This document shows positions 8,211 through 60,547 of a DNA stretch of 60,547 bases, piece after piece; the stretch's first letter is position 1, and the number at the start of each line of letters is the position of its first letter. Origin of the DNA: a virus (lineage: Duplodnaviria; Caudoviricetes); IMG/VR virus record IMGVR_UViG_3300027112_000001, positions 1 to 60,547 of that record; one strand, given 5' to 3'. The notes under the pieces are model-generated. The model worked only from the letters and a program-made list of their open reading frames with translations. It was not told the DNA's origin and did no database searches. The position numbers and the translations under genes are program-made.

Positions 8211-9653
8211 TCAGTTACACGTAGCACACCCGGTCATCCCGCCAGTCGGCACAAATCCGCTGGCACGAACTGTTCTCCATCGCGACGCAGCAGTGGACTC
8301 TCGCATCCCCTTGGTGCCTCCGCCGCAGCTATGTCGCATCGGGTCGTCGTACTCCCCGCATTGATTGCACACTCGGAAGGCTGGGCCTTCGCATCGGTGG
8401 TTGCAGCTAGTGGGCCCACCGCAGATCGTACACATGCCGTTGTCCTGGTATCGATCCCCGCGACACCCAACGCAGCCGCCCAACAAAGCCTCACCCCGTA
8501 GTACCTCCGCTCGGCGTTCAGGGTTGTCCGGCAGGGCCTGCGCCTCAATGGCCTGCATGGCCACTGCGTCGCCGAACGGGTTGGCTTGGACGGTTACTTC
8601 CCCTGGACCTTGCATGCTGGCATACACGACCCTAGGGCCACTGCCAGAGTACAATGGGCTCTGCTTAACGTAGTACTGCGGAGCGGCGAGTTCGGCCACA
8701 CCCGCGAACCGACCCTCGCCGCAGTCTCCGCAGCCAGGCCCCGTCCGAGGCTCTACGCTAATACCTATTTTGTTGTAGCTCCATATCGGAGCCGACTCGA
8801 TCTTATTGATGAAGCTCTGTGCGTCATGCGACAGAAGACTGTTCAGGCTCTGCTTGTGGCCCCAGTCCGATGTCAGCAGTACGCAGTGCGGAACCATACG
8901 ACAACCCCACTTAGCGATCTCTGCTTGACTCAGAGAGTCTCTGTCTATGATCCCGATGGCGTACTTCGAGCCTATCGCGTCTATGACCTCTCGGCTGAGC
9001 AGCACCTCCCGCTTGAACTTCTGACACGGAGCGCACCACGACGCCGTGAAGTAGAGAATCACATTCTTATTCTCGCGGGCAGCCCAGGACTTTGTAGTCG
9101 CGATCGAGTTTGTATATGTCAATACCTTCGAGTCGTCGGTAGCCTCGACCTGCTCTTCCACCCTGGGCTTCGGCTTCGGCGTGTGCTCGGGGCAGTCCTT
9201 GCATGCACACTTGCCCTTCTCGCAGGTACAGACCCCAGTGTTTGCGCAGTCGCAGTACTGTGGCGACATGTCCGACGCACCCCAGTCCCGCTCCAAGTTT
9301 GTGACGCGACGCTCCAGCGCAGTCAGCCCATCATGGTACTTCCGGTGCTCTACTTCCATAGTGGTCAGCCGGTGGTTCAGCTGGGCGAAGTGATCGCCGA
9401 TCGCCATCTTGCCATCGCCACCACAGACGCGGCACTGTGTGAGCCCATCCCCGCTGCGGCCAGTGCCGTTGCAGTTAGCGCATACGTCGCCTGGTTGCGG
9501 CGTTGGGATATCTGGTCCTGGGATAGGCGACCCTATCTCGACCGTATTGCCAACGGCGTCCGCTGCGTTTGCTTTGCCACGCTCTACCTCGAACTGCGCT
9601 AATGCTGCATCCCCGAGGAGACCGCATAGCAAGAACATGTAGATGATCTTCAT
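8211..9653 (-). CDS. Exported Cys-rich thioredoxin-domain protein
   Basis: Signal peptide, DnaJ-type CxxCxGxG pairs, coiled coil, metallothionein-like Cys cluster, thioredoxin active site FTASWCAPCQ, Cys-rich C-terminus. Confidence 0.75.
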   Translation of the reverse strand: MKIIYMFLLCGLLGDAALAQFEVERGKANAADAVGNTVEIGSPIPGPDIPTPQPGDVCANCNGTGRSGDGLTQCRVCGGDGKMAIGDHFAQLNHRLTTMEVEHRKYHDGLTALERRVTNLERDWGASDMSPQYCDCANTGVCTCEKGKCACKDCPEHTPKPKPRVEEQVEATDDSKVLTYTNSIATTKSWAARENKNVILYFTASWCAPCQKFKREVLLSREVIDAIGSKYAIGIIDRDSLSQAEIAKWGCRMVPHCVLLTSDWGHKQSLNSLLSHDAQSFINKIESAPIWSYNKIGISVEPRTGPGCGDCGEGRFAGVAELAAPQYYVKQSPLYSGSGPRVVYASMQGPGEVTVQANPFGDAVAMQAIEAQALPDNPERRAEVLRGEALLGGCVGCRGDRYQDNGMCTICGGPTSCNHRCEGPAFRVCNQCGEYDDPMRHSCGGGTKGMRESTAASRWRTVRASGFVPTGGMTGCATCN

Positions 9654-9654
9654 G

Positions 9655-10596
9655 CTAAACAATCCCTTGTGTGTCGAAGTCGTACAACTCCTGAGTGAAA
9701 CCCTTGATCGGCGAGAAGGCGTACGAGTCCTGCTCTCCGAGTTGCTTGTCAACGTCATCCTGGTGCGTTCTCCACGAGCACCCCATGACTGCTTGATCGT
9801 TAATCTTTGGGTACGGTCCGCTCACGGACTGACCCCACGAGTTGAATTGGTACAAGTATCCTACGCCAGACTCTGTCCAGCCCACGCCGAGGTACACCAT
9901 CTGGTGCGGCCAGCTGCCGTTGCGACGAATGAAGCCTTCGCTGTCTCGATCGCCCTCGTATCCTACTCCGCTCGCGACAGTCACTGGGCAGCCGGCACTG
10001 ATCGCCGCAGCCGCCTCGTCGAAGCTCCGCACGAGCGTAACGTCCATCACTGGGTACTGCCGAGCGATGTCGTCTAGTTTGTTCTTGTCTTGCTGCCCTC
10101 CGCAGCCGTAGTAGCCCCACTCTTTTGCTTTACGCTGATCGTAGCGAGTCAGGTCGTGCTCCGCGACTCCGGTCTCCTTCGAGTAGTCCTTGCGTAGCAG
10201 CACACCGTACTTGCTGACCCAGTCGGCAGCCCAAGAGCCAGCCGCCCCATCTGAGTTATAGTCCATCTGAGGACCGCCATGCACTTCTACTCGGCAGCCT
10301 CCGTAGATTGCTTCCGTCGCCGCTCGACCAGGCCAGGTGATCTCGCCCTTGGCCGCCATGTTCCATAACAAACACGTACACGCTAACTCGGCACCCCACG
10401 ACACGCAGTCGCCGATGCCTTGTGCTTCCCGCTTCCAGCTGGGGTCTACTCTGTCCTTCGCTTCCCAGAGGCGAACCTCTGTCCCTCGCTTCAGTTGGCG
10501 CACCATCCGATCAGGGACGTGCTTGACTGCCATCTGAGCCTGGAAGAACTCTTGGTAGTGTCGGTCGGGGATCCGACCAAATAGCTGCTTCGTCAT
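9655..10596 (-). CDS. Papain-like (C1-type) cysteine protease
   Basis: Catalytic motifs QGIGDCVSWG (Gln/Cys), WPHQMVYLG (His) and QFNSWG (Asn). Confidence 0.8.
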   Translation of the reverse strand: MTKQLFGRIPDRHYQEFFQAQMAVKHVPDRMVRQLKRGTEVRLWEAKDRVDPSWKREAQGIGDCVSWGAELACTCLLWNMAAKGEITWPGRAATEAIYGGCRVEVHGGPQMDYNSDGAAGSWAADWVSKYGVLLRKDYSKETGVAEHDLTRYDQRKAKEWGYYGCGGQQDKNKLDDIARQYPVMDVTLVRSFDEAAAAISAGCPVTVASGVGYEGDRDSEGFIRRNGSWPHQMVYLGVGWTESGVGYLYQFNSWGQSVSGPYPKINDQAVMGCSWRTHQDDVDKQLGEQDSYAFSPIKGFTQELYDFDTQGIV

Positions 10597-12521: not shown

Positions 12522-13784
12522 TTAAATATCATCGGGACCTTCAGAGAACTGCTCCGCCTGCGTAACAGGCACGTTGAGTTTCTCCAACATGGCTTGGATG
12601 TCCACCTGCCCAGCGATCTGCTCACCGAAGACTGGATCCGTCATCAGGGCAGTGAAGATCGTGGAGAACAACGCTCGGTCATCTGGCGACAACTTACCCA
12701 AGAGCAACCGGCACGCTCCCGGCTTGCCCCAGTTACTGCGGTTGAACGGCTCGAGAATATGCGTCGTCACTGCCTGCGTGATCCGCTTGTGCCGCTCAAG
12801 GTTAATAATGATCGCTACGTCGGCATGGGCCTCCGCCTCCGCCTTTGTCCCGAACGTGCCCTCGGTCGTGGCTCGCTCGGGGATGCCGAACGCTCGCAGC
12901 TTCAGGGCATCGAGGTACTTGAGGCGTACCACGAAGCTCGGCTGCAAGCCACCACCGTCGGTCACCCGCTCCATCTTCCAGGCGGACTCGGCAATCTCTC
13001 CGGTCTCTGGGTCGGTGTCCACTGGCGTGGCCCCATAGCCTGCTGATTTGTACGCTTCGCCCAGCCGCCTAGCCAGTTCGGCGTGGTCGATCTTGGGCCC
13101 ACCGTCCGTAATCGCCGTCGAACCGACTGGGTACTGGATCCAAGTGAAACCACCCGCGACCTTATCGTCGTATCGTTGAGCACCCGAATCGCACGCGTTC
13201 CACTTCTGCCAACTCTCTTGCGGGACTCGAAGCAACGGATCACCTAGATCCCCGTAGCCCTCGTCGTCGAAGTTCACCCACAACACATGGTCCTTGTCGA
13301 TTATCTCCTTCTTGCCGTTGCGGTCCGTGTTCTCGACGCCGAGGAAGTCACCGGTCTTATCGTCTACCAGGATATCGGTCAGGCAGGTCCGCAAGGACTT
13401 AATCCCAGTGAGCACCTGACGACGAGACTTGCCGCCCTTGAAGTCCACATCCTCGATGTCGTACCGCGTCTCGAAGGATCGCCACCCGTCCTTGAGCAGT
13501 CCCCTGAAAGAGGATCTGATAATGTACTCCTTGTACGGTTCCAGCTGGGCCCAAGTGAAGTCGCAGATGTCTGCGTCTTGCCCCTCGATGGTCCAGGGTT
13601 GCTGCATCAGCATAGCGACGATCACGTCCACCGCGAGTTTGATCGTCGGGTCGCGGAGCATGAGATTGAAGTCTCTGTCCGAGAGCCGAGCGGTATGCGG
13701 CAGTGTGGCACCGCCTACGCCACGGCCACCCCAGCCGTTGCTGCTGACGACCACTTGTCTGCCGGACTTGAATTCCTTGGCCAT
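12522..13784 (-). CDS. Portal protein (Mu gp29/DUF935-like)
   Basis: Follows the terminase; 420 aa; 'MLRDPTI', 'YGDLG.PLLR', 'GTFGTKAEAEAHAD' pattern typical of gp29-like portals. Confidence 0.8.
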   Translation of the reverse strand: MAKEFKSGRQVVVSSNGWGGRGVGGATLPHTARLSDRDFNLMLRDPTIKLAVDVIVAMLMQQPWTIEGQDADICDFTWAQLEPYKEYIIRSSFRGLLKDGWRSFETRYDIEDVDFKGGKSRRQVLTGIKSLRTCLTDILVDDKTGDFLGVENTDRNGKKEIIDKDHVLWVNFDDEGYGDLGDPLLRVPQESWQKWNACDSGAQRYDDKVAGGFTWIQYPVGSTAITDGGPKIDHAELARRLGEAYKSAGYGATPVDTDPETGEIAESAWKMERVTDGGGLQPSFVVRLKYLDALKLRAFGIPERATTEGTFGTKAEAEAHADVAIIINLERHKRITQAVTTHILEPFNRSNWGKPGACRLLLGKLSPDDRALFSTIFTALMTDPVFGEQIAGQVDIQAMLEKLNVPVTQAEQFSEGPDDI

Positions 13785-13791
13785 CGTTCAC

Positions 13792-15108
13792 CTAGTTTCC
13801 GATAACTACCAGTCGGTTGCCGCTGAGGTCCACTGGTATGGGGAAGTACTTGTAGATTGGGTAACCGAGTGCGTCGGTCGCGTGCCCGCTGTCGTGCCTT
13901 TGCCCTGGTTCAGCCGGCACCGGGTTGCCGTAAGGATCCAGAGCTCGGTTCTCCAGATCGTCTATGAGGTGCGTCACTCGGTGATCGATCCAGAGCCTAG
14001 TCTCGCCTTTGGCGTTGCGGAGCATAGCGTTGACCGAGGCCACGCGGTCCTGCACGCCTGGATTGCTCTTGTCGTAGCGGACCCTAGCATTGAACCGCGT
14101 ATCGCTGAGTATTTGTCGGTAGTCTGTCTTGCTCGCTGCCGTCTTGCGAGCTCGGCTGGATGCGTCACCAGTGAATAACCAGCCGCCCTTGTGCGTGGTG
14201 CCGTATCTGTTCCATAGGTGGTCGAGCGTCTCTTGCGTCGTAGTGTTCCGAAGCCAAATCTCATCAAAGACTTCTACTCCTCGCCCCGCTGGGGTATCGA
14301 CGAACTGCATCAGCACCCACGCCATCGGATCGACGTTGAAGTCGCTGCCCACCAGGATCAGCTTCCTCGGGTCGTAGGTGCAGGCTTTCTTATTGTGCGG
14401 ACCGAACGCGTAGTAGCACTTGCCTCCCGCGTCTACCCAGTTGCCACCTATTTGTTCGTTAAAATCTTTTGTATCAAGCTGAGCTCGGAGAGCCTCGATT
14501 TCCGCCGGGTCAGCAACGTCCCACGATGGCCAGGTGTAAGACTCGTACCCACCCTCTCCGCGTAGGCCCATCTCGTAGGCTTGCTTGAACTCGCGGGCAC
14601 CAGGTCCAAAACGCTTAGGTACTCCGATTCGCCAACACCAACCTTGACGAGCAGCAAGTGCTGGCCGGATGCTGCGGTCATACACGCCAGGCCTTTGATC
14701 ACTAGACTCATCGATCACACCTCCGTCCCACTCTGCTCCCTCGACACGAGCCGGTTTGTCGAGGCCCACTACGTACAGCTTGCTCCCAAAGATAGTCTCT
14801 ATCTCCATGCGAGACTCGGATGGCGGTTTGGCGAGCCACTCTTTTGGGACTAAGTTTAATATCTGGTCCCACGCCACTAAACGAGCTTGCGCATATGTAG
14901 GTAAAGCAAAGAAATACTTCGGGTCGGGCCATGGCTTCTCCACTGGCAAGTACGCCACTATCCTTCGTCGCGACATAGTGGTCTTGCCGCTGAACCGACC
15001 GCAGCACAACACCACCGTTCGGGACTGGCTACGCCATGCCCGCGACTGCTTGGCGTGCGGCCGGAGTCGTTCCCATTGCCTTGCTGGTAGTAGAGCCTTC
15101 GCCGCCAT
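13792..15108 (-). CDS. terL: Terminase large subunit
   Basis: Q motif PHAKQ, Walker A GRFSGKT, Walker B GVIDE, nuclease motifs GSDFNVDP and HATDALGY. Confidence 0.93.
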   Translation of the reverse strand: MAAKALLPARQWERLRPHAKQSRAWRSQSRTVVLCCGRFSGKTTMSRRRIVAYLPVEKPWPDPKYFFALPTYAQARLVAWDQILNLVPKEWLAKPPSESRMEIETIFGSKLYVVGLDKPARVEGAEWDGGVIDESSDQRPGVYDRSIRPALAARQGWCWRIGVPKRFGPGAREFKQAYEMGLRGEGGYESYTWPSWDVADPAEIEALRAQLDTKDFNEQIGGNWVDAGGKCYYAFGPHNKKACTYDPRKLILVGSDFNVDPMAWVLMQFVDTPAGRGVEVFDEIWLRNTTTQETLDHLWNRYGTTHKGGWLFTGDASSRARKTAASKTDYRQILSDTRFNARVRYDKSNPGVQDRVASVNAMLRNAKGETRLWIDHRVTHLIDDLENRALDPYGNPVPAEPGQRHDSGHATDALGYPIYKYFPIPVDLSGNRLVVIGN

Positions 15109-15551
15109 CAGTCCTCAAAGCCACCTGGATTGATGTCCTCTTCGCCCATGCTCGTGAACAAGAATATCTCATGGGCGTCGGTGTCTCGCGAGCCAGGAGC
15201 AAAGGTCTCTAAGGTATGCCCAGCCGCGTGCCGGAACATCCGAGTGCCGTCGTCCTCCCTGCCTTCTTCCGCGAAGCCCAGCTTCTTGAACTTCTTGAGG
15301 GACTTATTAAACTCGGTTACGCTCGTGCCCTTCCACGTGGAGCCATCTGCGGAGTGCTTGGCTCCCTTCGGCATGGCCGCATGCAGCTGCTTCGTAGTGG
15401 GCCCGTCTACTGCTCCTGCTCCGCCGCCCTCGCCTCCGCAGGAGTTGTCGATCCCTCCGCCTTTGCCCGTAGCACAAAAGCCCAGCTTCAGCGTCTCCGG
15501 TGCTCCGTACCCAGGGTCACCAGGGAACAACCACTTAACTTTCTTGCTCAT
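15108..15551 (-). CDS. Small protein carrying the same FCxTGKGGGIDNSC tag as the polyprotein modules
   Basis: TLKLGFCATGKGGGIDNSC at ~15438-15495. Confidence 0.75.
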   Translation of the reverse strand: MSKKVKWLFPGDPGYGAPETLKLGFCATGKGGGIDNSCGGEGGGAGAVDGPTTKQLHAAMPKGAKHSADGSTWKGTSVTEFNKSLKKFKKLGFAEEGREDDGTRMFRHAAGHTLETFAPGSRDTDAHEIFLFTSMGEEDINPGGFED

Positions 15552-16554: not shown

Positions 16555-16671
16555 TCACTTGGTTTTCTTTCGTCCGGCACTGGGTCCTCGCTTCCCTAGC
16601 TTCGTGATCTGTAGGTCGCTGCCTTTGACCACGAATCTGTTTGGCTTCTTGGCTTTCTTCTTTTTGCTCAT
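16555..16671 (-). CDS. 38-aa basic peptide translationally coupled to the polyprotein (not in ORF track)
   Basis: ATGA overlap with the polyprotein stop; MSKKKKAKKPNRFVVKGSDLQITKLGKRGPSAGRKKTK. Confidence 0.55.
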   Translation of the reverse strand: MSKKKKAKKPNRFVVKGSDLQITKLGKRGPSAGRKKTK

Positions 16672-19600
16672 AGTAGTGTCACCTGTACGAAATTGGTACC
16701 GTCCTCTTGGTATGTTCCCGTCACCTTGAACTGACTGCCACGAGGCAGCAAGACCTCCGCCTCGCCCCAGTCTAGGAACAAGGCTCGTTTGCCCTTGGGC
16801 ACGGTAATCTGCATCCGGATCGTCTTTCCGAACTGCTTGGCTACACCCGGATCTAGCGTCGTGCTCGTGTATCCATGGTCCACGAACTGATCGCCTGGCT
16901 TCAGTTTCGAGAACACGCTCAGCCCACCGTCGTCAATGCCTCGCACCACTTTGATCTCAGAGCTCAGTGGCGGGGCTTTCGCAAACGCTTTGTCCAGCTT
17001 GTTGATCTCGGTGTCCACCCCAATGCCCAAGTAGTCCTTGGGCTGTGGCTTCTCCCATGTCTCCAACTTTGATTTTCGAAGGTACTCGTTCATCTGTTCA
17101 TGGCCGTCCTCCGAGTACCAACTGACCGCATCATCCACGGAGCTTGTCTTGGTGTACCTCTTCTGCTCCTGAATTAGCTCCTTGCAGCACGGATGGAATC
17201 CCTTGTCGAACGTGCCGACCTTTGCTTTCTCCTTCGGCGGCTCGTCGTCGGCGATCACCTGCTTGCTCTTAAAGTCGATCTCGCGGTTAATCTCCGCTCG
17301 GAGTTTCTTCAGCGAGCTCAGCGTCTCTCCCTCGACCGCCTCGCCTGCCTTGACCTTCTTGATCTTGGCCTTGACTGCGTCGCGGTCCGCTTCCAGCTTG
17401 GCTATTTCCTTCAGCAGCTTCGTCGAACCTTTGGCTGCACCCGCGACAGCCTTCGCTGCCTTCGGTCCGCCCTTCCCGCACGTGGGGTCAACGCCACCGC
17501 CTTTACCAGTTGGGCAGAACGCGAGCTCCAACCCTTCCGGCAGCACCACCGTAGCGTCACGAGCCACGAGGTCCTCCTCGGCGAGGGACACGATCTCGAT
17601 GTCCTGCATCTGGAACTTGTCTCGGCTTAGTATCTCGTCGATGCTTAATTCTTTCATATCTCCCCGCGTCTCTCTGGCCAACGCCAGCATCTCGGTGCCT
17701 AGCTGACCAGCTGGCAGTCCTACGTAATGATCCGGCAATACTTCCGCGTCTATGACTGTGACCACTCCGTGCCCTGGGTGATTAATCTCGTACTTCGCCA
17801 ACACCTTCATCTTCGTGTCCCGAGGCAACAAGAACTCCCGCTCGTAGCCCGAGCCTGGCCCGCCATCCACACTGACATAAGCACCGCGATTGCCCTTCGG
17901 CACCTTAAGATTTATCTTCGTGGCTCCGTTGCCGTACCCAGGTTCTTTCTTCGTGGCGATCGATGTGCTCACGTACCCGCGCTCTAAGAACACATCGCCG
18001 ACCTCCAGCTTTCCTACGACGTTGCCCATCTTACCCGCGTTGCGATGCAGCAGCAAGTCCTCTTTCAGTGGTGGCGATTTGCGAAGAGCCTCATCAATCC
18101 GGATCACCCTGTCGAGGACGTCCGCCTTGACTACGTTGTGTCGTAGGTTGCCGTTAATAGTTTTGTAGCCCGACGAGCAGTAGCTGCCAAGCGCTTGCCG
18201 CTCTTGGAGAGTCAGGTTCTTCACCCACTCACTGTAGTTCTCTTTTGCCCATTCCTGATGTCCGCCATCTTTGAAGTTCTTCGGGCCACCAGGCAGGTAC
18301 GAGCCATCTTCCGCGATGTAATGTGAGATCCCCTTGAGTGGCTTGGCCGGACTCGGCGGTGGCGGGGTCGGTGCTACTGGTGTCAAACCTTTCGGAGCAG
18401 ACGGTGGTGGTGGTAGCGGAGGCTTGCCGATAAACTGCGAAGTCGTGCCAGGCTTGCTCGTGACGACGCCCATCAGTTTGTCGCTGGCCTGCTTCTCGAA
18501 GGCTTTAGCTTTCGCGTTGAGCAGCTTACGCTGCTTCTTCAGGGCACTCAACCCCTTCGTGGTGCCCGTAGCTTTGATTGCCGCGATCTTGGCCGCCACT
18601 CCCTTGGCTTCCGCCTTTGCCACCTTCGCCGACAGACGCAACGCATCTACTTCAGCCTTGAGCTCGGGCGTCATGGCGACGGAGTTTAACCCACCGCTGC
18701 CTCCGCGTCCGCCTCCCGGCGAGCAGCTATTGTCGATGCCTCCGCCTTTGCCCGTAGGACAGAACGCCAAGGACAGACCCACAGGCAAGTACGAGAACTC
18801 GATGCCGTGCTCGGCGTCCTTCATAGCCGCGTTGATTACTTCCTCCACCTGGTCCTCGGGGAACTCGTCCGCGAACTCTGCCTGCCCAGTCATGATCCCA
18901 GTGAAGTGGACCCACGAGTTGCCGTCCTCGTCCTCGCCAGTGCCGCGTGCCTGGAAGCGTAACCGCGTCTCTTCCTGATCGACGCCCAATAACTTTTGTG
19001 TCACGTCGAAGTGCGTAGCCTTGAACGCATCCCACGTGTATAGGTTGCCCTCGTTATCGACCATGCCCCTGAGCGTATCGACCGTACCGCCCTCGGTCAA
19101 CCCCGCGTCGAACTTGGCTCGGATCTTGGCGAGCACTTGCGACATACTCGGGTTGACGTGGATCTTGACCTCTTGGCCGTTGTCGAGCTCGATCGTCTCG
19201 TGGCCGGAGGATGCCTTCCCGCAGGTAGGATCGATGCCACCGCCTTTACCAGTAGCACAAAACGCGAGCTCCAGCCCAGCAGGCAAGAAGCTTAGGGCGA
19301 GCTCCTTCGCCTCCTCGACGAGGTTCTTGTACCGCTGGGTCAGCGTAGTAATCACTGCGTCCGGCACTACGTCCCCAAGCAAGTACGTCAATCTAGCATG
19401 CGGGTCTGCCCCCATCCGAGACCGGAGCGTGTTGATTTGTGCAGCCAGATCCTTGTCTGACAGGCTGCCAAACACTTGGTGGGCGGATGCGTTGCTTCCG
19501 CCATGCCGCATGCTATCGAGCTCGCCCACTGAATTTCCGAAAGCCTTGCCCTTCGGCGAGCCCATTGCTCGAAACGCTAGGGCTCCTCCGTTGTCCAACC

Positions 19601-21410
19601 GGAGCACTTTGCCACTACTGGTCACGCCGATGTTGTCGTGTTCCAGCCCTGCGACATCCCAGTTCGCCAGCCACGCATCGACCACGAAGTTCTTGGATAC
19701 TTCCTCTATTGCCTTCTGGCGAGTGTAACCTTGTAGGTCTCCGAGGGTCTTGACCTTCTCGAACTTGTTGAACACCGCAGCCTTGCCCTCGTACTCGCCG
19801 AGCTTCGTCTCGGGCACGGAGCCAGGGGCGAACGCTTCGTAGAGCTTGTTCGCCGCGTACTCGTTCTTGACGTTCGCTTCCTTGCCTCCGTAGGTCTTCA
19901 TCACGTAGTCGCCATCGCCTTCGATGCGGACCTTCTTGGCTCCGGTGCTGCCGCCTATGTTCGAGTCCAGGACCTTAATCTTGCCTACAGCCTCGGGCAC
20001 GTCCGCTCCGCTAGCGATCTTGGCATCGGCTATCTGCTTGTTCAGCTTCGCTCGCAGCTTCTTCGTTGCCGCTGTGACACCACCCGCTGCTCGCTCCTTC
20101 GCTACCTGCGCCATGAGGTTCGCTTGCTGCACGTAGAGCGAAGCTAGCTGACCGGAGCCTCCGGAGGACGACGAGCAACTGTTGTCGATTCCGCCGCCTT
20201 TACCCGTAGGACAGAACGCGAGCATCAACCCTTCGGGCATCGGGGAGTCTAGCTCGATGCTCGCCGCTACCTGACCAGTACTTACGCTCTCTCGCTTGCC
20301 GAGCGTAGCATACATGAACTCCTCTATCTCCGGCAGCAGCCGCTTGCCGCTGGTGCCGTAGTTCGGGTGCGTTATGGCAGCGAACGACTCAGCGTAGTAC
20401 TCCTTAATGTTGCTCGTTCCGTACTCGGTGAGAGTCTTGGCCGCGTCTTTGCTCTTCTTCCACCGCTTCTGATGGGCCTCGTCTTTGCAGAGCTTCATCT
20501 TCTTGCCCACTATATCCAGGAACTCGCTGCGTTGCTGCTGCGAGAGTGCCTTGTACCAAATCCGATGCCCGAACTCATGCCTGATGACACTCTGCATCCT
20601 GCCACCGCCGATCGTCCAGTGACCGGCTCCTACCCCTGGCGTCGGGGTTTCGGCAATTGGCAAATGCGACATCACCCCGATGTTGTTGTTCAGAGCCCAG
20701 TAGGTGCCGATCGCCGAGCCACCGTTCACGCCATGCCCAGCTTGGCCACTGGACTTCACGTCCGTTACGCGGAACTCGTTTGCTTGGAACGAAAACGTGT
20801 GGACCTTGATCTCGCCCTTCAGATGCTTGTCCACTAACTCGAACTCGTTCGCCGCTCTGTTGATCTCGTTGGCGTAGACCTGAGCTACTTCGACTATGCG
20901 AGACTTGTCTACGCTGCCGCCCTTGGTGAGCGTAGTAGACAACTCGTCCTTGAGGTACTTACTCGCTTCCGCCATCGAGTTGAACTCAACTGCTTCGGGG
21001 CGAGTGCCCTTGGCTCCGAAGGATTTCTTCGGTCCGGCAGGCGGAGCAGGTGGTGCGTCCGGCGGCGAGGCAGGCTTGGGCGGAGCAGGCTTCTTGCCCT
21101 TCGGCGGAGTCTTCGGTGGCAGAGGCTTGCCGGCGAGCTTCGCTTCGAGCTCTGCGATCTTGCTGTTAATCTGTGAGCGTAGCTTCTTCGTGGCACTAGT
21201 CGCGACACCCTTCGGCGAGAGCTTCCGCTCCTCGGCTGCCTTCTTCTGGATCTCTTCCCGCTTCGCGTAGAGCTCGGTGAGCTCCTTCTGTATCGCGAAG
21301 GCATCGCCGTCCCCAGCACTCGCCGCCGAGCCTCCCGGCGAGCACGTAGGATCTATGCCTCCGCCTTTGCCAGTCGGACAGAATGCGAGCTCTAGTCCAG
21401 CAGGTAGCAT
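16668..21410 (-). CDS. 1580-aa modular effector polyprotein: zincin metallopeptidase + HipA/PI3K-like kinase + unknown + two VIP2/Alt-like ADP-ribosyltransferases, each preceded by a repeated tag
   Basis: Peptidase HEFGH...EYYAESF. Kinase GGSTGA..YVMK..NEY..DAWLANWD..N..LDNG. ART1 Y..INGNLR..HR..GYVSTS..EREFLLPR. ART2 MNEYLR..VRG..GYTSTT..EAEVLLPR. Five LxLAFCxTGKGGG[IV]DxxC repeats. Confidence 0.88.
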   Translation of the reverse strand: MLPAGLELAFCPTGKGGGIDPTCSPGGSAASAGDGDAFAIQKELTELYAKREEIQKKAAEERKLSPKGVATSATKKLRSQINSKIAELEAKLAGKPLPPKTPPKGKKPAPPKPASPPDAPPAPPAGPKKSFGAKGTRPEAVEFNSMAEASKYLKDELSTTLTKGGSVDKSRIVEVAQVYANEINRAANEFELVDKHLKGEIKVHTFSFQANEFRVTDVKSSGQAGHGVNGGSAIGTYWALNNNIGVMSHLPIAETPTPGVGAGHWTIGGGRMQSVIRHEFGHRIWYKALSQQQRSEFLDIVGKKMKLCKDEAHQKRWKKSKDAAKTLTEYGTSNIKEYYAESFAAITHPNYGTSGKRLLPEIEEFMYATLGKRESVSTGQVAASIELDSPMPEGLMLAFCPTGKGGGIDNSCSSSSGGSGQLASLYVQQANLMAQVAKERAAGGVTAATKKLRAKLNKQIADAKIASGADVPEAVGKIKVLDSNIGGSTGAKKVRIEGDGDYVMKTYGGKEANVKNEYAANKLYEAFAPGSVPETKLGEYEGKAAVFNKFEKVKTLGDLQGYTRQKAIEEVSKNFVVDAWLANWDVAGLEHDNIGVTSSGKVLRLDNGGALAFRAMGSPKGKAFGNSVGELDSMRHGGSNASAHQVFGSLSDKDLAAQINTLRSRMGADPHARLTYLLGDVVPDAVITTLTQRYKNLVEEAKELALSFLPAGLELAFCATGKGGGIDPTCGKASSGHETIELDNGQEVKIHVNPSMSQVLAKIRAKFDAGLTEGGTVDTLRGMVDNEGNLYTWDAFKATHFDVTQKLLGVDQEETRLRFQARGTGEDEDGNSWVHFTGIMTGQAEFADEFPEDQVEEVINAAMKDAEHGIEFSYLPVGLSLAFCPTGKGGGIDNSCSPGGGRGGSGGLNSVAMTPELKAEVDALRLSAKVAKAEAKGVAAKIAAIKATGTTKGLSALKKQRKLLNAKAKAFEKQASDKLMGVVTSKPGTTSQFIGKPPLPPPPSAPKGLTPVAPTPPPPSPAKPLKGISHYIAEDGSYLPGGPKNFKDGGHQEWAKENYSEWVKNLTLQERQALGSYCSSGYKTINGNLRHNVVKADVLDRVIRIDEALRKSPPLKEDLLLHRNAGKMGNVVGKLEVGDVFLERGYVSTSIATKKEPGYGNGATKINLKVPKGNRGAYVSVDGGPGSGYEREFLLPRDTKMKVLAKYEINHPGHGVVTVIDAEVLPDHYVGLPAGQLGTEMLALARETRGDMKELSIDEILSRDKFQMQDIEIVSLAEEDLVARDATVVLPEGLELAFCPTGKGGGVDPTCGKGGPKAAKAVAGAAKGSTKLLKEIAKLEADRDAVKAKIKKVKAGEAVEGETLSSLKKLRAEINREIDFKSKQVIADDEPPKEKAKVGTFDKGFHPCCKELIQEQKRYTKTSSVDDAVSWYSEDGHEQMNEYLRKSKLETWEKPQPKDYLGIGVDTEINKLDKAFAKAPPLSSEIKVVRGIDDGGLSVFSKLKPGDQFVDHGYTSTTLDPGVAKQFGKTIRMQITVPKGKRALFLDWGEAEVLLPRGSQFKVTGTYQEDGTNFVQVTLL

Positions 21411-21674
21411 CTATTCTTCCTCGCGGCGACGATCCAACAACGCTTCGTCAGATAGATCCGGGTCTAGCTGAAACGTAATCGGCTCTTCCTCTTGGTAGTC
21501 CACTTGTGACGGATCCGGCTCGAGGTGCAGATCATGCCCATCGCAGATCTCTTCCGGTATCCCCTCGGGGAACGCACCGCACACGTGGACCTCACTGGCC
21601 TCTGTCCCGTCCGGCTGCTCGACGCCCTCGTAGTGTATGCAGCCCCGTACCCAGCATCTGCATTTAGCCAACAT
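21411..21674 (-). CDS. Small Cys/His protein with CxAFPxGIP motif (candidate immunity/accessory)
   Basis: C..GCIHY...CGAFPEGIPEEICDGHDLH.EP; stop abuts the polyprotein start. Confidence 0.6.
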   Translation of the reverse strand: MLAKCRCWVRGCIHYEGVEQPDGTEASEVHVCGAFPEGIPEEICDGHDLHLEPDPSQVDYQEEEPITFQLDPDLSDEALLDRRREEE

Positions 21675-21799: not shown

Positions 21800-22264
21800 C
21801 TACCAAACGAAGTGCGCGACCCATGCTACGAAGCGCTTCATGATCCGCTGAACCTTGGCCCATAAGGATTGTCGTAGCATGCCGTACTTGTGAGTAAGTT
21901 CTTCGCGAGACTTATCAGAGCAGTACCAGTCGTGGATCAACTCGTACTCTTCCTCGCTTAAGAGAGCTTGGAGCTCCTCGATGCTCATGGGCACATCACC
22001 AGTAACGTTTAGTGCCGGCACTTGGATATGTCTAAAATCTTCTCCCTCTAATATGGGCACCTCCTTCTTGGCCTTCTTGTACCGAACGAATGCGTTCCGT
22101 AACGCGGTCATGGCGTATGTTGAAAACGAGCCTCGGGACTCGTCGTGATTCTTCTCGCAGTCCTGGAGCACTTGCAGACCGAGCTCGGCGACGAGGTCGG
22201 GATCGACGCCCACTCGCTTAGCTATCCGCTCGACAAGTTTGAGGTGGTTCCAGATGTCTGACAC
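21800..22264 (-). CDS. Phage RNA polymerase sigma-70 family factor (regions 2 and 4)
   Basis: 'HLKLVERIAKR..DPDLV..LG.....HDESRGSFSTYAMTALRN'; C-terminal HTH 'LSEEEYELI...SREEL..KYG..RQ'. Confidence 0.75.
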   Translation of the reverse strand: MSDIWNHLKLVERIAKRVGVDPDLVAELGLQVLQDCEKNHDESRGSFSTYAMTALRNAFVRYKKAKKEVPILEGEDFRHIQVPALNVTGDVPMSIEELQALLSEEEYELIHDWYCSDKSREELTHKYGMLRQSLWAKVQRIMKRFVAWVAHFVW

Positions 22265-58834: not shown

Positions 58835-59860
58835 CTAGGCTCGCTTTTGAGATCGTTCCTTGGCTCGCTTCGCGGCCTCGATCATGGGGTTTTCTTTGCC
58901 GTTCTCGTCCTTGGACAGACGGATGACACTGCGGCCCACGTTCTGGATCGGCCGAGCTTCGGCGATCTTGCGGGCCTGCGCCACCATACGGTCGAACTCG
59001 GTCTCTCCGCTAGCGTTGTCTTCGCTGCTGAGGCTGAGGTCGCCAGTGATAGCATCGTCGGAGCAGTACGTCTTCTTCCACTCGTCGCCGAGGGCAGGCG
59101 TAAGCACGCGCTCCTTCACCAGGGAATCGATAACCGTTTCCCGCGACAGCTTGAACTGTCGGACCATGGCGGCTGGGAATGAAAGATTCAACGCAGGTTC
59201 CTCCACTTCTTCGAGGTTCTGAACCTCTTGGAGAATCAACCGCAACTGCTCGGGCTCGGATGAGCCTTCGGGAGCGGAGATGCCAAGAGCATCCAGGATC
59301 TTAGTAATGAGCTCGTTCATGCTGCCTCCGCCTTTGCCCTTAGATTTAGGTGCAGGCTCATCAGCGAGTTTCAGGCCGGACTGCGTATCGTAAGACAGCA
59401 CGACCGGACCCTTCCAATCTTCCAGACCAGGCACTACCGGGACGGAAGTAGCGGCGACGTGCCGCAGAGGATAAGAGTACGTCTTGCCTTTGCCATCGAC
59501 AAAGGACTTGGGGCACATGGCGGAGACATCCACGCGGGTGCACTTCTTCTTGGCATCCTCGTCGTGGAACTTCACCTTAATGAAGGTGGACATCACGCCG
59601 TCTTTGTTCGGCTTCTTCTGAAGGTCCAGAACCGTCCCGCGATCGTTGTCGGGATCTTCCACGTGCGTCTTGAAGAAAGGCACGCGGATCTTGGTCTTCT
59701 GGAACTGCTTGAACTGGGAGACCATGCGATCGAGGAACGGTTCCTTCACCTCGACGGTGACGGGTTTGTCGTTCTCAACCCACGGACAGATCTCGCCGAC
59801 GGGAAGTAGCTCCTTCTCCATCACGAGCGGATCAGCGGTCTTTTGCCAGGCTTGCGTCAT
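58835..59860 (-). CDS. Prohead protease/scaffold (Mu gpI-like)
   Basis: Between MuF and decoration; H ('KTH'), 'VSA', 'LRHVAATSVPVVPGL'; helical C-terminal scaffold. Confidence 0.75.
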   Translation of the reverse strand: MTQAWQKTADPLVMEKELLPVGEICPWVENDKPVTVEVKEPFLDRMVSQFKQFQKTKIRVPFFKTHVEDPDNDRGTVLDLQKKPNKDGVMSTFIKVKFHDEDAKKKCTRVDVSAMCPKSFVDGKGKTYSYPLRHVAATSVPVVPGLEDWKGPVVLSYDTQSGLKLADEPAPKSKGKGGGSMNELITKILDALGISAPEGSSEPEQLRLILQEVQNLEEVEEPALNLSFPAAMVRQFKLSRETVIDSLVKERVLTPALGDEWKKTYCSDDAITGDLSLSSEDNASGETEFDRMVAQARKIAEARPIQNVGRSVIRLSKDENGKENPMIEAAKRAKERSQKRA

Positions 59861-59900: not shown

Positions 59901-60547
59901 TTACAATAAAAGTTCCGTGAAGTCCGTCTCGAATCCTGGATCGGGTGAGGCACCGGATGGGACCTTAGTTTGAGTAACCTCGTCGTCGTAAATAGCGACT
60001 GCTTGACACCGGCAGTTCCAGCCATTGGGTGGCCAGAACTGATCCCAGAACTCATCGTCCTTCTTTCGCTTGATCCCGTCGAGGACTTCGTGCTCCTCGC
60101 GGACTCGATCGTCGCCAACGGTCAAGTACTCAAAACCCCATACGTCCAAGTCGCCTTCGAAGCTGATGCGATGGGCGACGCCATATGCTATGGCCGAGTG
60201 CGTTCTGACTAGGGTCTCTATGTACCCAGTCGATCTAGGCTGCAACCCATGGCGACGAATCGCTTCGAGCATCTGAGCGACGCCCTGCTCCGTCGGTAGG
60301 TTCAGCTTCGTGACGTCGGCCAACGCATCGTTCATCACAGTCCGGATATCCGCCACGGACTTCTTGACTGCCTTCGACGACGTCGGGTAGAACCGCCTCT
60401 TGATGTTGCCTAGGTCTAGGTCGAACAGATCCGCTATGCGAGTGGCGTCCTCGAACACGGAGGCCAGCTTGAGGCTCTTGGCCATACTCCGCCGCTTGTT
60501 ACCTACCTTCAGCCGGAGCAGGTAGCTGTAGGCCATCACATTGGCCA
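59901..60547 (-). CDS. MuF-like head morphogenesis protein, 3' part
   Basis: 'ETLVRT', 'YLTVGDDRVREEH..LDG', 'FWPPNGWNCRC'. Confidence 0.9.
   Translation of the reverse strand, partial: ANVMAYSYLLRLKVGNKRRSMAKSLKLASVFEDATRIADLFDLDLGNIKRRFYPTSSKAVKKSVADIRTVMNDALADVTKLNLPTEQGVAQMLEAIRRHGLQPRSTGYIETLVRTHSAIAYGVAHRISFEGDLDVWGFEYLTVGDDRVREEHEVLDGIKRKKDDEFWDQFWPPNGWNCRCQAVAIYDDEVTQTKVPSGASPDPGFETDFTELLL
60449..60547. repeat. Terminal direct repeat, copy 2
   Basis: Identical to 1-99. Confidence 0.97.

Follow-up and report, generated by a model that had tools for sequence, protein, structure and literature searches.

Phage polyvalent proteins, as described in the available text of Iyer et al. (2017; PMC5512222), carry effector domains encoded beside virion genes, with zincin metallopeptidases and ADP-ribosyltransferases (ARTs) as hubs and with fusions to MuF or portal proteins, and processing by the zincin has been proposed there. 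The MuF polymorphic toxins of temperate phages, according to the accessible text of Jamet et al. (2017; PMC5576092), consist of an N-terminal MuF domain followed by one C-terminal toxin. Polyvalent and MuF-fused proteins are thought to serve many phages for the injection of a first wave of host-takeover and anti-defence enzymes. Here we analyze a polyvalent effector polyprotein of 1580 amino acids (aa), denoted P0001, that is encoded in the IMG/VR virus record IMGVR_UViG_3300027112_000001 (Duplodnaviria; Caudoviricetes), a complete record of 60,547 bp with a GC content of 58%, which is referred to below, at its full length, as the window. Each of the five modules of P0001 is headed by the same short motif (hereafter, the tag), which is composed of a lineage-specific prefix and a nearly invariant segment bounded by two cysteines (the Cys-loop). 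This header is a new, widespread and seemingly undescribed motif of phage polyvalent effector proteins, which are themselves a known class.

In comparison with the polyvalent proteins of Iyer et al. (2017), in the available text of which domains are described but no junction motif was found and the words 'cysteine' and 'linker' do not occur, P0001 shows the same header on every module and is not fused to MuF. The accessible text of Jamet et al. (2017) similarly contains no occurrence of 'cleav', 'linker', 'cysteine' or 'pretoxin'. The tag proteins of other phages resemble MuF toxins in that a head-morphogenesis MuF domain carries toxic or enzymatic cargo, but MuF is located mid-chain between tagged modules in the former and at the N-terminus in the latter.

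Short N-terminal signals on head-internal, ejected enzymes that the prohead protease cuts at a consensus site once the head is assembled are known from the internal proteins and Alt of phage T4 (the capsid-targeting sequence) and from the propeptides of SPN3US and phiKZ. These signals are removed and occur once per gene, whereas in the window several modules are tagged and the conserved half of the tag would probably stay in place; the protease types differ as well, and there is no sequence similarity between these signals and the tag. With respect to the (L/I)xE end of the T4 capsid-targeting sequence, which is roughly 10 aa long, L-E-L is present in three of the five P0001 prefixes but the motif is otherwise unrelated, and the candidate prohead protease of the window is gpI/gpO-like (a lead only) rather than gp21-like. 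MARTX toxins are effector polyproteins in which a built-in CPD cysteine protease cuts the linkers at loose Leu sites. Both MARTX and P0001 present an enzyme cocktail as one chain that also includes a protease (in P0001, a candidate for this role); however, MARTX toxins are secreted by bacteria, use the CPD and lack a conserved header, whereas P0001 has no CPD. Finally, PT-VENN and other pre-toxin motifs form a short border between a constant part and an exchangeable toxin, with one junction per protein and no Cys-loop. Many tags read VENVF or TENAF and thus resemble PT-VENN, but no Pfam match to this family (PF04829) was detected at E<=0.1 in the tag proteins P0001, P0002, P0003 and P0094.

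A repeated header in the polyprotein P0001

P0001 is encoded on the minus strand (positions 16668..21410 of the window; all features below are on the same strand) and consists of five modules, each with the organization tag-linker-cargo. The tags share the pattern (L/M)PxGLxLA-FC[PA]TGKGGG[IV]D[PN][TS]C, and a six-frame scan of the window for C-x-T-G-K-G-G-G yields six matches in one minus-strand frame, five of them in P0001 and one in an open reading frame (ORF) of 147 aa. Tag 1 occupies aa 2-23, immediately past the start codon (21342..21407; first Cys at aa 11, position 21380), and is followed by tag 2 (20175..20240; first Cys aa 400, position 20213), tag 3 (19221..19286; aa 718, position 19259), tag 4 (18723..18788; aa 884, position 18761) and tag 5 (17478..17543; aa 1299, position 17516). 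The sixth copy, in the 147-aa ORF (15108..15551), lies at 15438..15503, with the first Cys at position 15476. A degenerate DNA pattern for F-C-[PA]-T-G-K-G-G-G-[IV]-D matches the window six times, compared to 0.00 matches expected from 100 dinucleotide-preserving shuffles. The five tagged modules and the additional copy that had been noticed in an earlier reading of this DNA (hereafter, the sequence-only reading) are thus confirmed, and P0001 is placed on the minus strand.

Over a core of 23 codons, the DNA identity between tag copies is 59-80%, and synonymous codon differences are at least as numerous as the non-synonymous ones in each of the 10 pairs among the five P0001 copies (11 vs 5 and 9 vs 2, for instance) and in 12 of the 15 pairs when the sixth copy is added. 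Because synonymous differences dominate, it is the peptide and not the DNA that is conserved, in agreement with the sequence-only reading. The prefix P-x-G-L-x-L-A is present in all five P0001 tags and is degenerate (APETLKLG) in the sixth copy.

The order of cargos proposed in the sequence-only reading, namely zincin, kinase, unknown, ART and ART, is borne out by Pfam matches, invariant residues, structure prediction with AlphaFold2 (AF2) and Foldseek comparison. Cargo 1 (aa 141-371; 20298..20990) is a zincin metallopeptidase with an HEFGH signature at aa 289-293 and a downstream Glu, which is recognized by weak Pfam matches to ATLF and Peptidase_Mx and by a local iterative hidden Markov model (HMM). 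The pattern R-H-E-x-G-H...E...E-x-F is invariant among its relatives (alignment A2), and the module is a gluzincin. Cargo 2 (about aa 478-706; 19293..19979) has no Pfam family. The AF2 model built from an alignment of nine sequences (predicted local distance difference test, pLDDT, 83.9; predicted template modeling score, pTM, 0.82) produced 37 Foldseek matches to the PDB at E<=0.001, with kinases throughout among the matches listed and CtkA of H. pylori at the top (TM 0.60). Residues G33, S34, K51, E63, D124, N129, D131, D152, G154 and G155 are invariant in the alignment of this module (A3), corresponding to the K, E, D..N.D and DNGG elements. The predicted structure accordingly combines the bilobal fold, Gly-rich loop, Lys, Glu, D..N loop and DxG loop that define a protein-kinase-like fold.

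Cargo 3 (18786..19208) is a domain of roughly 140 aa without an assigned function, for which one weak relative (P0033) was detected and no match in Pfam, PHROG or PDB. Cargos 4 and 5 belong, by sequence, to the ADP-ribosyltransferase exoenzyme family PF03496, which matches P0001 in two stretches with 158.3 bits against a cut-off of 23.4, and both show the R / S-T-S / E-x-E catalytic residues. Cargo 4 (aa 1052-1214; 17769..18257) is a Vip2/C2/iota-like ART (PF03496, 2e-46; Vip2 in the PDB, 2e-16) with the catalytic residues, assigned by eye, in HR..YVSTS..EREF. Cargo 5 (aa 1421-1578; 16677..17150) is the second ART, with catalytic residues in VRG..YTSTT..EAEV, also assigned by eye, and matches phrog_3895 (5e-33), the Alt-like phrog_802, the second PF03496 stretch and, weakly, PF01129. 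P0001 therefore combines several unrelated effector domains (zincin, kinase fold, an unknown domain and two ARTs) in one polypeptide, includes the hub domains zincin and ART, and is encoded among late, virion genes, as is the case for polyvalent proteins. Another tag protein, P0063, carries zincin, kinase-fold and ART modules in an order unlike that in P0001.

A second repeat was observed in P0001, a basic helix of the form [ST]xxKK[LQ]RxxIN that is located 38-62 aa past the tag in modules 1, 2, 4 and 5 (aa 63-94, 438-467, 946-977 and 1356-1387; positions 21129-21224, 20010-20099, 18480-18575 and 17250-17345). This helix is lineage-specific and recurs in the close relatives P0063 and P0145, 50-67 aa from the tag.

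The tag in other phages

The exact DNA pattern of the tag is found in 20 IMG/VR contigs, in multiple copies within giant ORFs and near the N-termini of adjoining ORFs. A profile built from 39 tag instances (A1) was used to search 1.84 billion cluster representatives, with 1418 proteins detected at E<=0.001, 391 at E<=1e-10 and 74 at E<=1e-30, and up to 10 matching stretches per protein. The counts given below refer to a local sample of 196 tag proteins that together contain 690 tags. The consensus is [TV]-x-N-[VA]-F-C-[PA]-T-G-x-G-G-G-[VI]-D-[PN]-[ST]-C-[SGK]-[PK]-G, in which the F, both C, the T, four G and the D are nearly invariant; the residue ahead of the first Cys is F and rarely Y or W. 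The K of the window's GKGGG, which the sequence-only reading included in the motif, is E, P or K in other tags and is not conserved.

The prefix shows a different mode of variation. The residue at position -3 relative to the first Cys is N in 549 of the 690 tags, R in 87, K in 24, L in 16, F in 6 and H in 4, with four singletons; the tags of one protein nearly always share the same class, which changes from lineage to lineage, and the 3-10 residues ahead of the core likewise vary by lineage but not within a protein. The window tags belong to the rare L class together with those of P0145 and P0063, the owners of the closest zincin relatives. Thus, LxLA, which had been suggested as the cleavage site, does not hold as a general one, whereas the idea of a two-part tag fits, with a lineage-specific, per-protein-uniform prefix attached to a nearly invariant Cys-loop. 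We also observed a further prefix class with an aromatic residue at -3 (SWEFATY[AE]F-C and xxFAF-C, in L008, L026, L049 and L050), with which the stretch ahead of window tag 4 (HGIEFSY) aligns.

The similarity detected by BLAST between the window proteome and the tag-bearing loci is limited to cargo domains, the tag and, in one locus, MuF. Tag cores of 16-17 aa are nevertheless 94-100% identical between these phages, which apart from that MuF are otherwise dissimilar by BLAST, and the amino-acid core is kept across phages with a GC content of 44-60%. The median spacing between tags is 256 aa. Among the 196 proteins, 125 have their first tag in the N-terminal 100 aa (the earliest first Cys being residue 7), and only two have any tag in the last 60 aa. 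The spacing, the N-terminal location of first tags and the near-absence of tags at C-termini together indicate that tags head modules. The residues past the tag are rich in G, S and P, and an AF2 model of the alignment of 39 tag sequences shows a pLDDT of 60.7 and no secondary structure.

Profile comparison, which had been suggested as a check, shows the tag fused to varied cargos in head-gene proteins of other phages. Cargos with Pfam matches include ART, ART-PolyVal, topoisomerase IB, GNAT, 2H/2'-5' ligase domains (weakly Acb1-like), HNH, NUDIX, ParB, C39 peptidase and sigma-70, and zincins were detected in addition. Single-linkage clustering of the inter-tag segments collapses them into one component of 387. 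Among proteins with many tags, P0002 (2644 aa) contains ten at a spacing of ~190-270 aa, each after GH[VT]xNVF and mostly followed by KKGESRQAPPD, without any Pfam match; it is an array of unknown modules that are possibly duplicated.

The most common family in the tag proteins is MuF, which is present in 114 of the 196 according to a local model seeded from Pfam-defined MuF segments (a seed from the window's own MuF domain linked P0063 only). In 108 of these 114 proteins, at least one tag is located ahead of MuF, and the following tag is found ~66 aa past it; because tags flank MuF, MuF itself is one tagged module. Portal proteins (PF06381), by contrast, lead their proteins and are followed C-terminally by tag and cargo, in all five proteins listed and in all three ORFs tested in other genomes. 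Across 12 phage records (the window and 11 others), the tagged ORFs form one block in every record, at most about 1 kb apart, and the tagged proteins are all located in head-gene blocks; in 11 of these records a tagged ORF includes MuF, and the window is the one exception. Hence the view that the tag provides a MuF-fusion-independent route for loading effectors holds for the window, where MuF is encoded apart and has no extension, but fails elsewhere, given the MuF-containing majority and the portals that carry tag and cargo. The tag is part of the MuF/portal fusion system rather than an alternative to such fusion, and the window is exceptional.

Peptidases are enriched as well. The HExxH signature is present in 78 of the 196 tag proteins, compared to 8.35 expected from shuffling, and a zincin HMM match was found in a tagged ORF in all six records with a completeness of 78% or more and in two of the six less complete ones. 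One of the latter, G014 (69% complete, with 10 tags in two ORFs), lacks zincin HMM matches throughout the record, and its tagged ORFs do not contain HExxH.

Neither Pfam-A nor NCBIfam has a model matching the tag, which holds even for proteins that bear it 10 times, and no PDB chain matches the tag profile at E<=10. A tblastn search with a tag 40-mer against 50,697 isolate-phage records returned chance-level rows (best E 0.6), although the low-complexity filter may hide matches in this search. A relaxed DNA pattern of the core was found in only three contigs of metagenome-assembled genomes among 185,579 species genomes, and the phage branch that bears the core motif may so far be represented in metagenomes only. 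Our literature search found no description of the tag, the full-text matches to core peptide strings being two unrelated papers on parechoviruses; in particular, the main texts of the polyvalent-protein paper, the MuF-toxin paper and an NAD-ADPr survey, as far as available, contain no such motif, with the qualification that a listing confined to a supplement would escape. Several familiar motifs were considered by eye against their consensus sequences and rejected, namely the lipobox, for which Phe at -1 is unsuited, the sortase signal LPXTG, the RTX repeat GGxGxD and intein junctions. An acid-labile Asp-Pro bond was rejected as well, with D-N found instead in three of the six window tags.

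Proposed processing of the polyprotein and competing explanations

The location of the tags at module borders, their flexible context, the pattern of prefixes, the presence of head proteins among the modules and the enrichment of peptidases liken the tag to the junctions of viral polyproteins; by analogy, a prefix that is uniform within a protein but specific to a lineage fits the behavior of polyprotein cleavage sites. We propose that the tag is a bipartite junction signal and that a cut, most likely made by the zincin module, would result in each effector bearing the Cys-loop at its N-terminus as a handle. The probability that we attach to this proposal is approximately 0.4, because we infer the steps of the mechanism, that is, the cleavage, the cutting enzyme, the position of the cut, the location in the virion and the role in packaging or ejection.

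Under the bipartite-signal proposal, the header would be a short linear motif that is embedded in a flexible linker and marks the N-terminal boundary of each module in virion-delivered polyvalent proteins. Its first half (about -10 to -1), which reads LPxGLxLAF in the window, [TV]xN[VA]F in the majority of phages and ExRAF in a further lineage, is predicted to comprise the recognition and scissile site of a phage peptidase, with the cut directly ahead of the aromatic residue that precedes the first Cys. Zincins usually prefer an aromatic residue at P1'. The likeliest peptidase would be the gluzincin found among the tagged modules (module 1 in the window), and the alternative is the candidate prohead protease-scaffold protein encoded at 58835-59860, which the sequence-only reading had put forward; the zincin module is at least as good a candidate. 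The second half, C-[PA]-T-G-x-G-G-G-[VI]-D-[PN]-[ST]-C, together with the Gly/Ser/Pro linker, would stay on the new N-terminus of the released enzyme. There, the loop might be clamped by a disulfide or through thiol or metal chemistry, or might bind a conserved partner, and thus could serve as a common handle for holding and ejecting the effectors. Constrained loop chemistry or a conserved partner is suggested by the invariance of the loop across otherwise unrelated phages, and a function of its own on the downstream module by its conservation beyond the needs of a protease and its presence at free N-termini.

Several observations weigh against this proposal. The cleavage is itself an inference, and none of the isolate-phage records appears to carry the tag. 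In P0001, a tag starts at residue 2, and elsewhere the first Cys of N-terminal tags is at aa 7-15, so that nothing upstream is available to be cut off; for this reason, a tag at the N-terminus would be meaningful only with the function residing in its downstream half. The four Gly and two Cys that are invariant exceed the requirements of a protease site. A zincin is missing from G014 with its 10 tags, and HExxH is found in just 78 of the 196 tag proteins. Shared ancestry, for which no control was applied, confounds the association of prefix class with zincin clade. As for the alternative peptidase, the Mu-like protease model PF10123 scores over the cut-off in none of the 14 tag-bearing records, but the same model misses the window's own candidate at 58835-59860, and the search is therefore uninformative. 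A complex prediction for the zincin domain (A2), Zn and the tag (A1) gave a score of 0.01 against a mark of 0.32, without controls, and is used neither for nor against the proposal.

The header marks module borders, predicts cut points and offers targets for mutation (the prefix, Phe-Cys and the second Cys). It also makes it possible to search for domains without annotation that are probably injected as effectors; the modules flagged in this way include kinase-fold, topoisomerase IB, sigma-factor, Acb1-like 2H and GNAT domains and many unannotated ones. An extended version, to which we give about half the credence of the bipartite signal itself, treats the Cys-loop as a portable address label: a peptidase would cut the prefix, and the N-terminal loop would hold the enzyme in the head and feed it to the ejection channel, possibly under a thiol, metal or redox switch on entry. 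Were this the case, ~25 added residues would load any protein into such capsids, and the unknown tagged modules of metagenomes, which number in the thousands, would immediately be recognized as injected effectors.

Two rival explanations appear about as probable as the address label. In the first, the tag would be a docking element that is never cut, the Cys-loops binding the scaffold core, the capsid interior or the portal crown with avidity, such that the polyprotein is loaded and ejected whole, in a manner resembling T4 capsid-targeting sequences and the cargo-loading peptides of encapsulins, minus the cut. The tags at the extreme N-terminus of proteins without MuF or portal (P0001 and the 147-aa ORF), the confinement of tagged proteins to head-gene blocks and the linear-motif character of the tag in the AF2 model are all compatible with docking. 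However, the tag is equally frequent where MuF or a portal is already fused, and a loading tag would be redundant there because the fused head protein already anchors the chain. Moreover, capsid, portal and scaffold proteins show no BLAST match between these phages (and MuF does so in one locus), so the putative receptors appear too diverged for a near-invariant core, and a chain of 1580-3000 aa would have to traverse the tail uncut.

The second explanation holds that the tag is a structural micro-element, that is, a Gly loop clamped by a metal or disulfide that, with neither a partner nor a cut, acts as a hinge or insulator between modules that fold independently, or as a joint sensitive to redox state or metal in the virion compared to the reducing cytoplasm. 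Constrained chemistry is suggested by the invariance of F, C, T, four G, D and C, and the core is kept across phages without other detectable similarity. Nevertheless, AF2, which does not model metals, leaves the motif unfolded (pLDDT 60.7, no secondary structure), a standard Zn site needs more than two Cys, and PDB chains gave no profile match at E<=10; neither the lineage-specific, per-protein-uniform prefix nor the tag at the free N-terminus of the first module is explained by this model.

A cysteine switch is considerably less probable. Matrix metalloproteinases are kept latent by a Cys of the pro-domain and, by analogy, the Phe-Cys of the tag might fill the S1' pocket and reach the zinc of the zincin, which would remain latent until injection. 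The excess of HExxH in tag proteins and the nearly invariant Phe-Cys beside a flexible loop agree with such a switch, but up to 10 tags occur per zincin, tagged proteins without a zincin exist in records G014, G013 and G008, and there is no structural support.

Repeats that act at the DNA level, as homology patches for the shuffling of cassettes with the peptide being incidental, are strongly disfavored: modules have evidently been shuffled, as in P0063, but the copies are 59-80% identical in DNA with mostly synonymous differences and the amino-acid core is maintained in phages of 44-60% GC. Least probable of all is a translational device that would yield modules without a protease, by internal initiation or a 2A-like skip, for which the conserved peptide with free synonymous change and an ATG, TTG or GTG near the start of the four internal tags could be cited, but none of these tags has a properly spaced Shine-Dalgarno sequence (that of tag 3 is ~15 nt from the nearest start codon), which rules out internal starts, a skip signal would be pointless at residue 2, and we know of no bacterial equivalent of 2A.

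Gene context in the window

ORF calling on the minus strand alone gives 72 non-overlapping genes in the record, the 99-bp terminal repeat of which is read as an assembly overlap. Downstream of P0001, the order is the small tagged ORF of 147 aa, the large terminase subunit and a Mu-type portal. In the 147-aa ORF, the sixth tag is followed by a small unknown cargo, and the gene is directly upstream of that for the large terminase subunit (13792..15108; phrog_2, 9e-23), with the untagged portal gene next to it (12522..13784; PF06074, 7.8e-8). The location of P0001 just upstream of terminase and portal was correctly stated in the sequence-only reading. Beyond the assembly junction, there are genes for MuF, the candidate protease-scaffold protein and a lambda-E-type capsid protein. 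The MuF head-morphogenesis protein (59901..60539; PF04233, 1.5e-12) is untagged and stand-alone, spans the 99-bp assembly repeat and stops shortly past the PF04233 domain, without an effector extension; P0001 itself has no PF04233 match and thus is not a MuF-fused effector.

The candidate prohead protease-scaffold protein (58835..59860; 341 aa) is a Mu gpI/P2 gpO-like lead that is based on language-model features (0.96 to Mu-like_Pro clusters), with a structural TM score of 0.33-0.41 and no match in Pfam or PHROG. It contains a Cys-less tag-like stretch, GLKLA...GKGGGS (aa 162-182), that could be a processing site of this protein itself. This stretch, SGLKLADEPAPKSKGKGGGS, with a GLxLA prefix and a GKGGG run like those of the tags, joins the protease-like N-terminal half to the helical C-terminal half. 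Sites of the form [GSTA]LxL[AG] are not enriched in the window proteome, with five outside the tags (11 in total) compared to 6.4 expected for the whole proteome.

Several further observations concern the surroundings of the locus. An 87-aa Cys-rich ORF with an acidic tail and no Pfam match (21411-21674, minus strand) stops one base ahead of the start codon of P0001; given this one-base gap, the two might be translationally coupled, and the product of the small ORF could be a chaperone or partner. An exact 40-mer of the window had no matches in metagenome contigs, and the identical 1580-aa protein is encoded on 10 contigs, the largest of which, at 268,804 bp compared to the 60.5-kb genome, might represent a concatemer or an integrated copy. 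A sigma-70 region-2-like ORF (21800-22264, minus strand) lies a short distance upstream of the effector locus. In another phage, a tagged MuF polyprotein (P0104) contains sigma-70 regions 2 and 4, suggesting that a sigma factor is injected. Finally, a very Cys-rich protein of 515 aa with a weak thioredoxin-domain match is encoded at 8211-9758 (minus strand) and may be relevant if the tag cysteines are redox-active.

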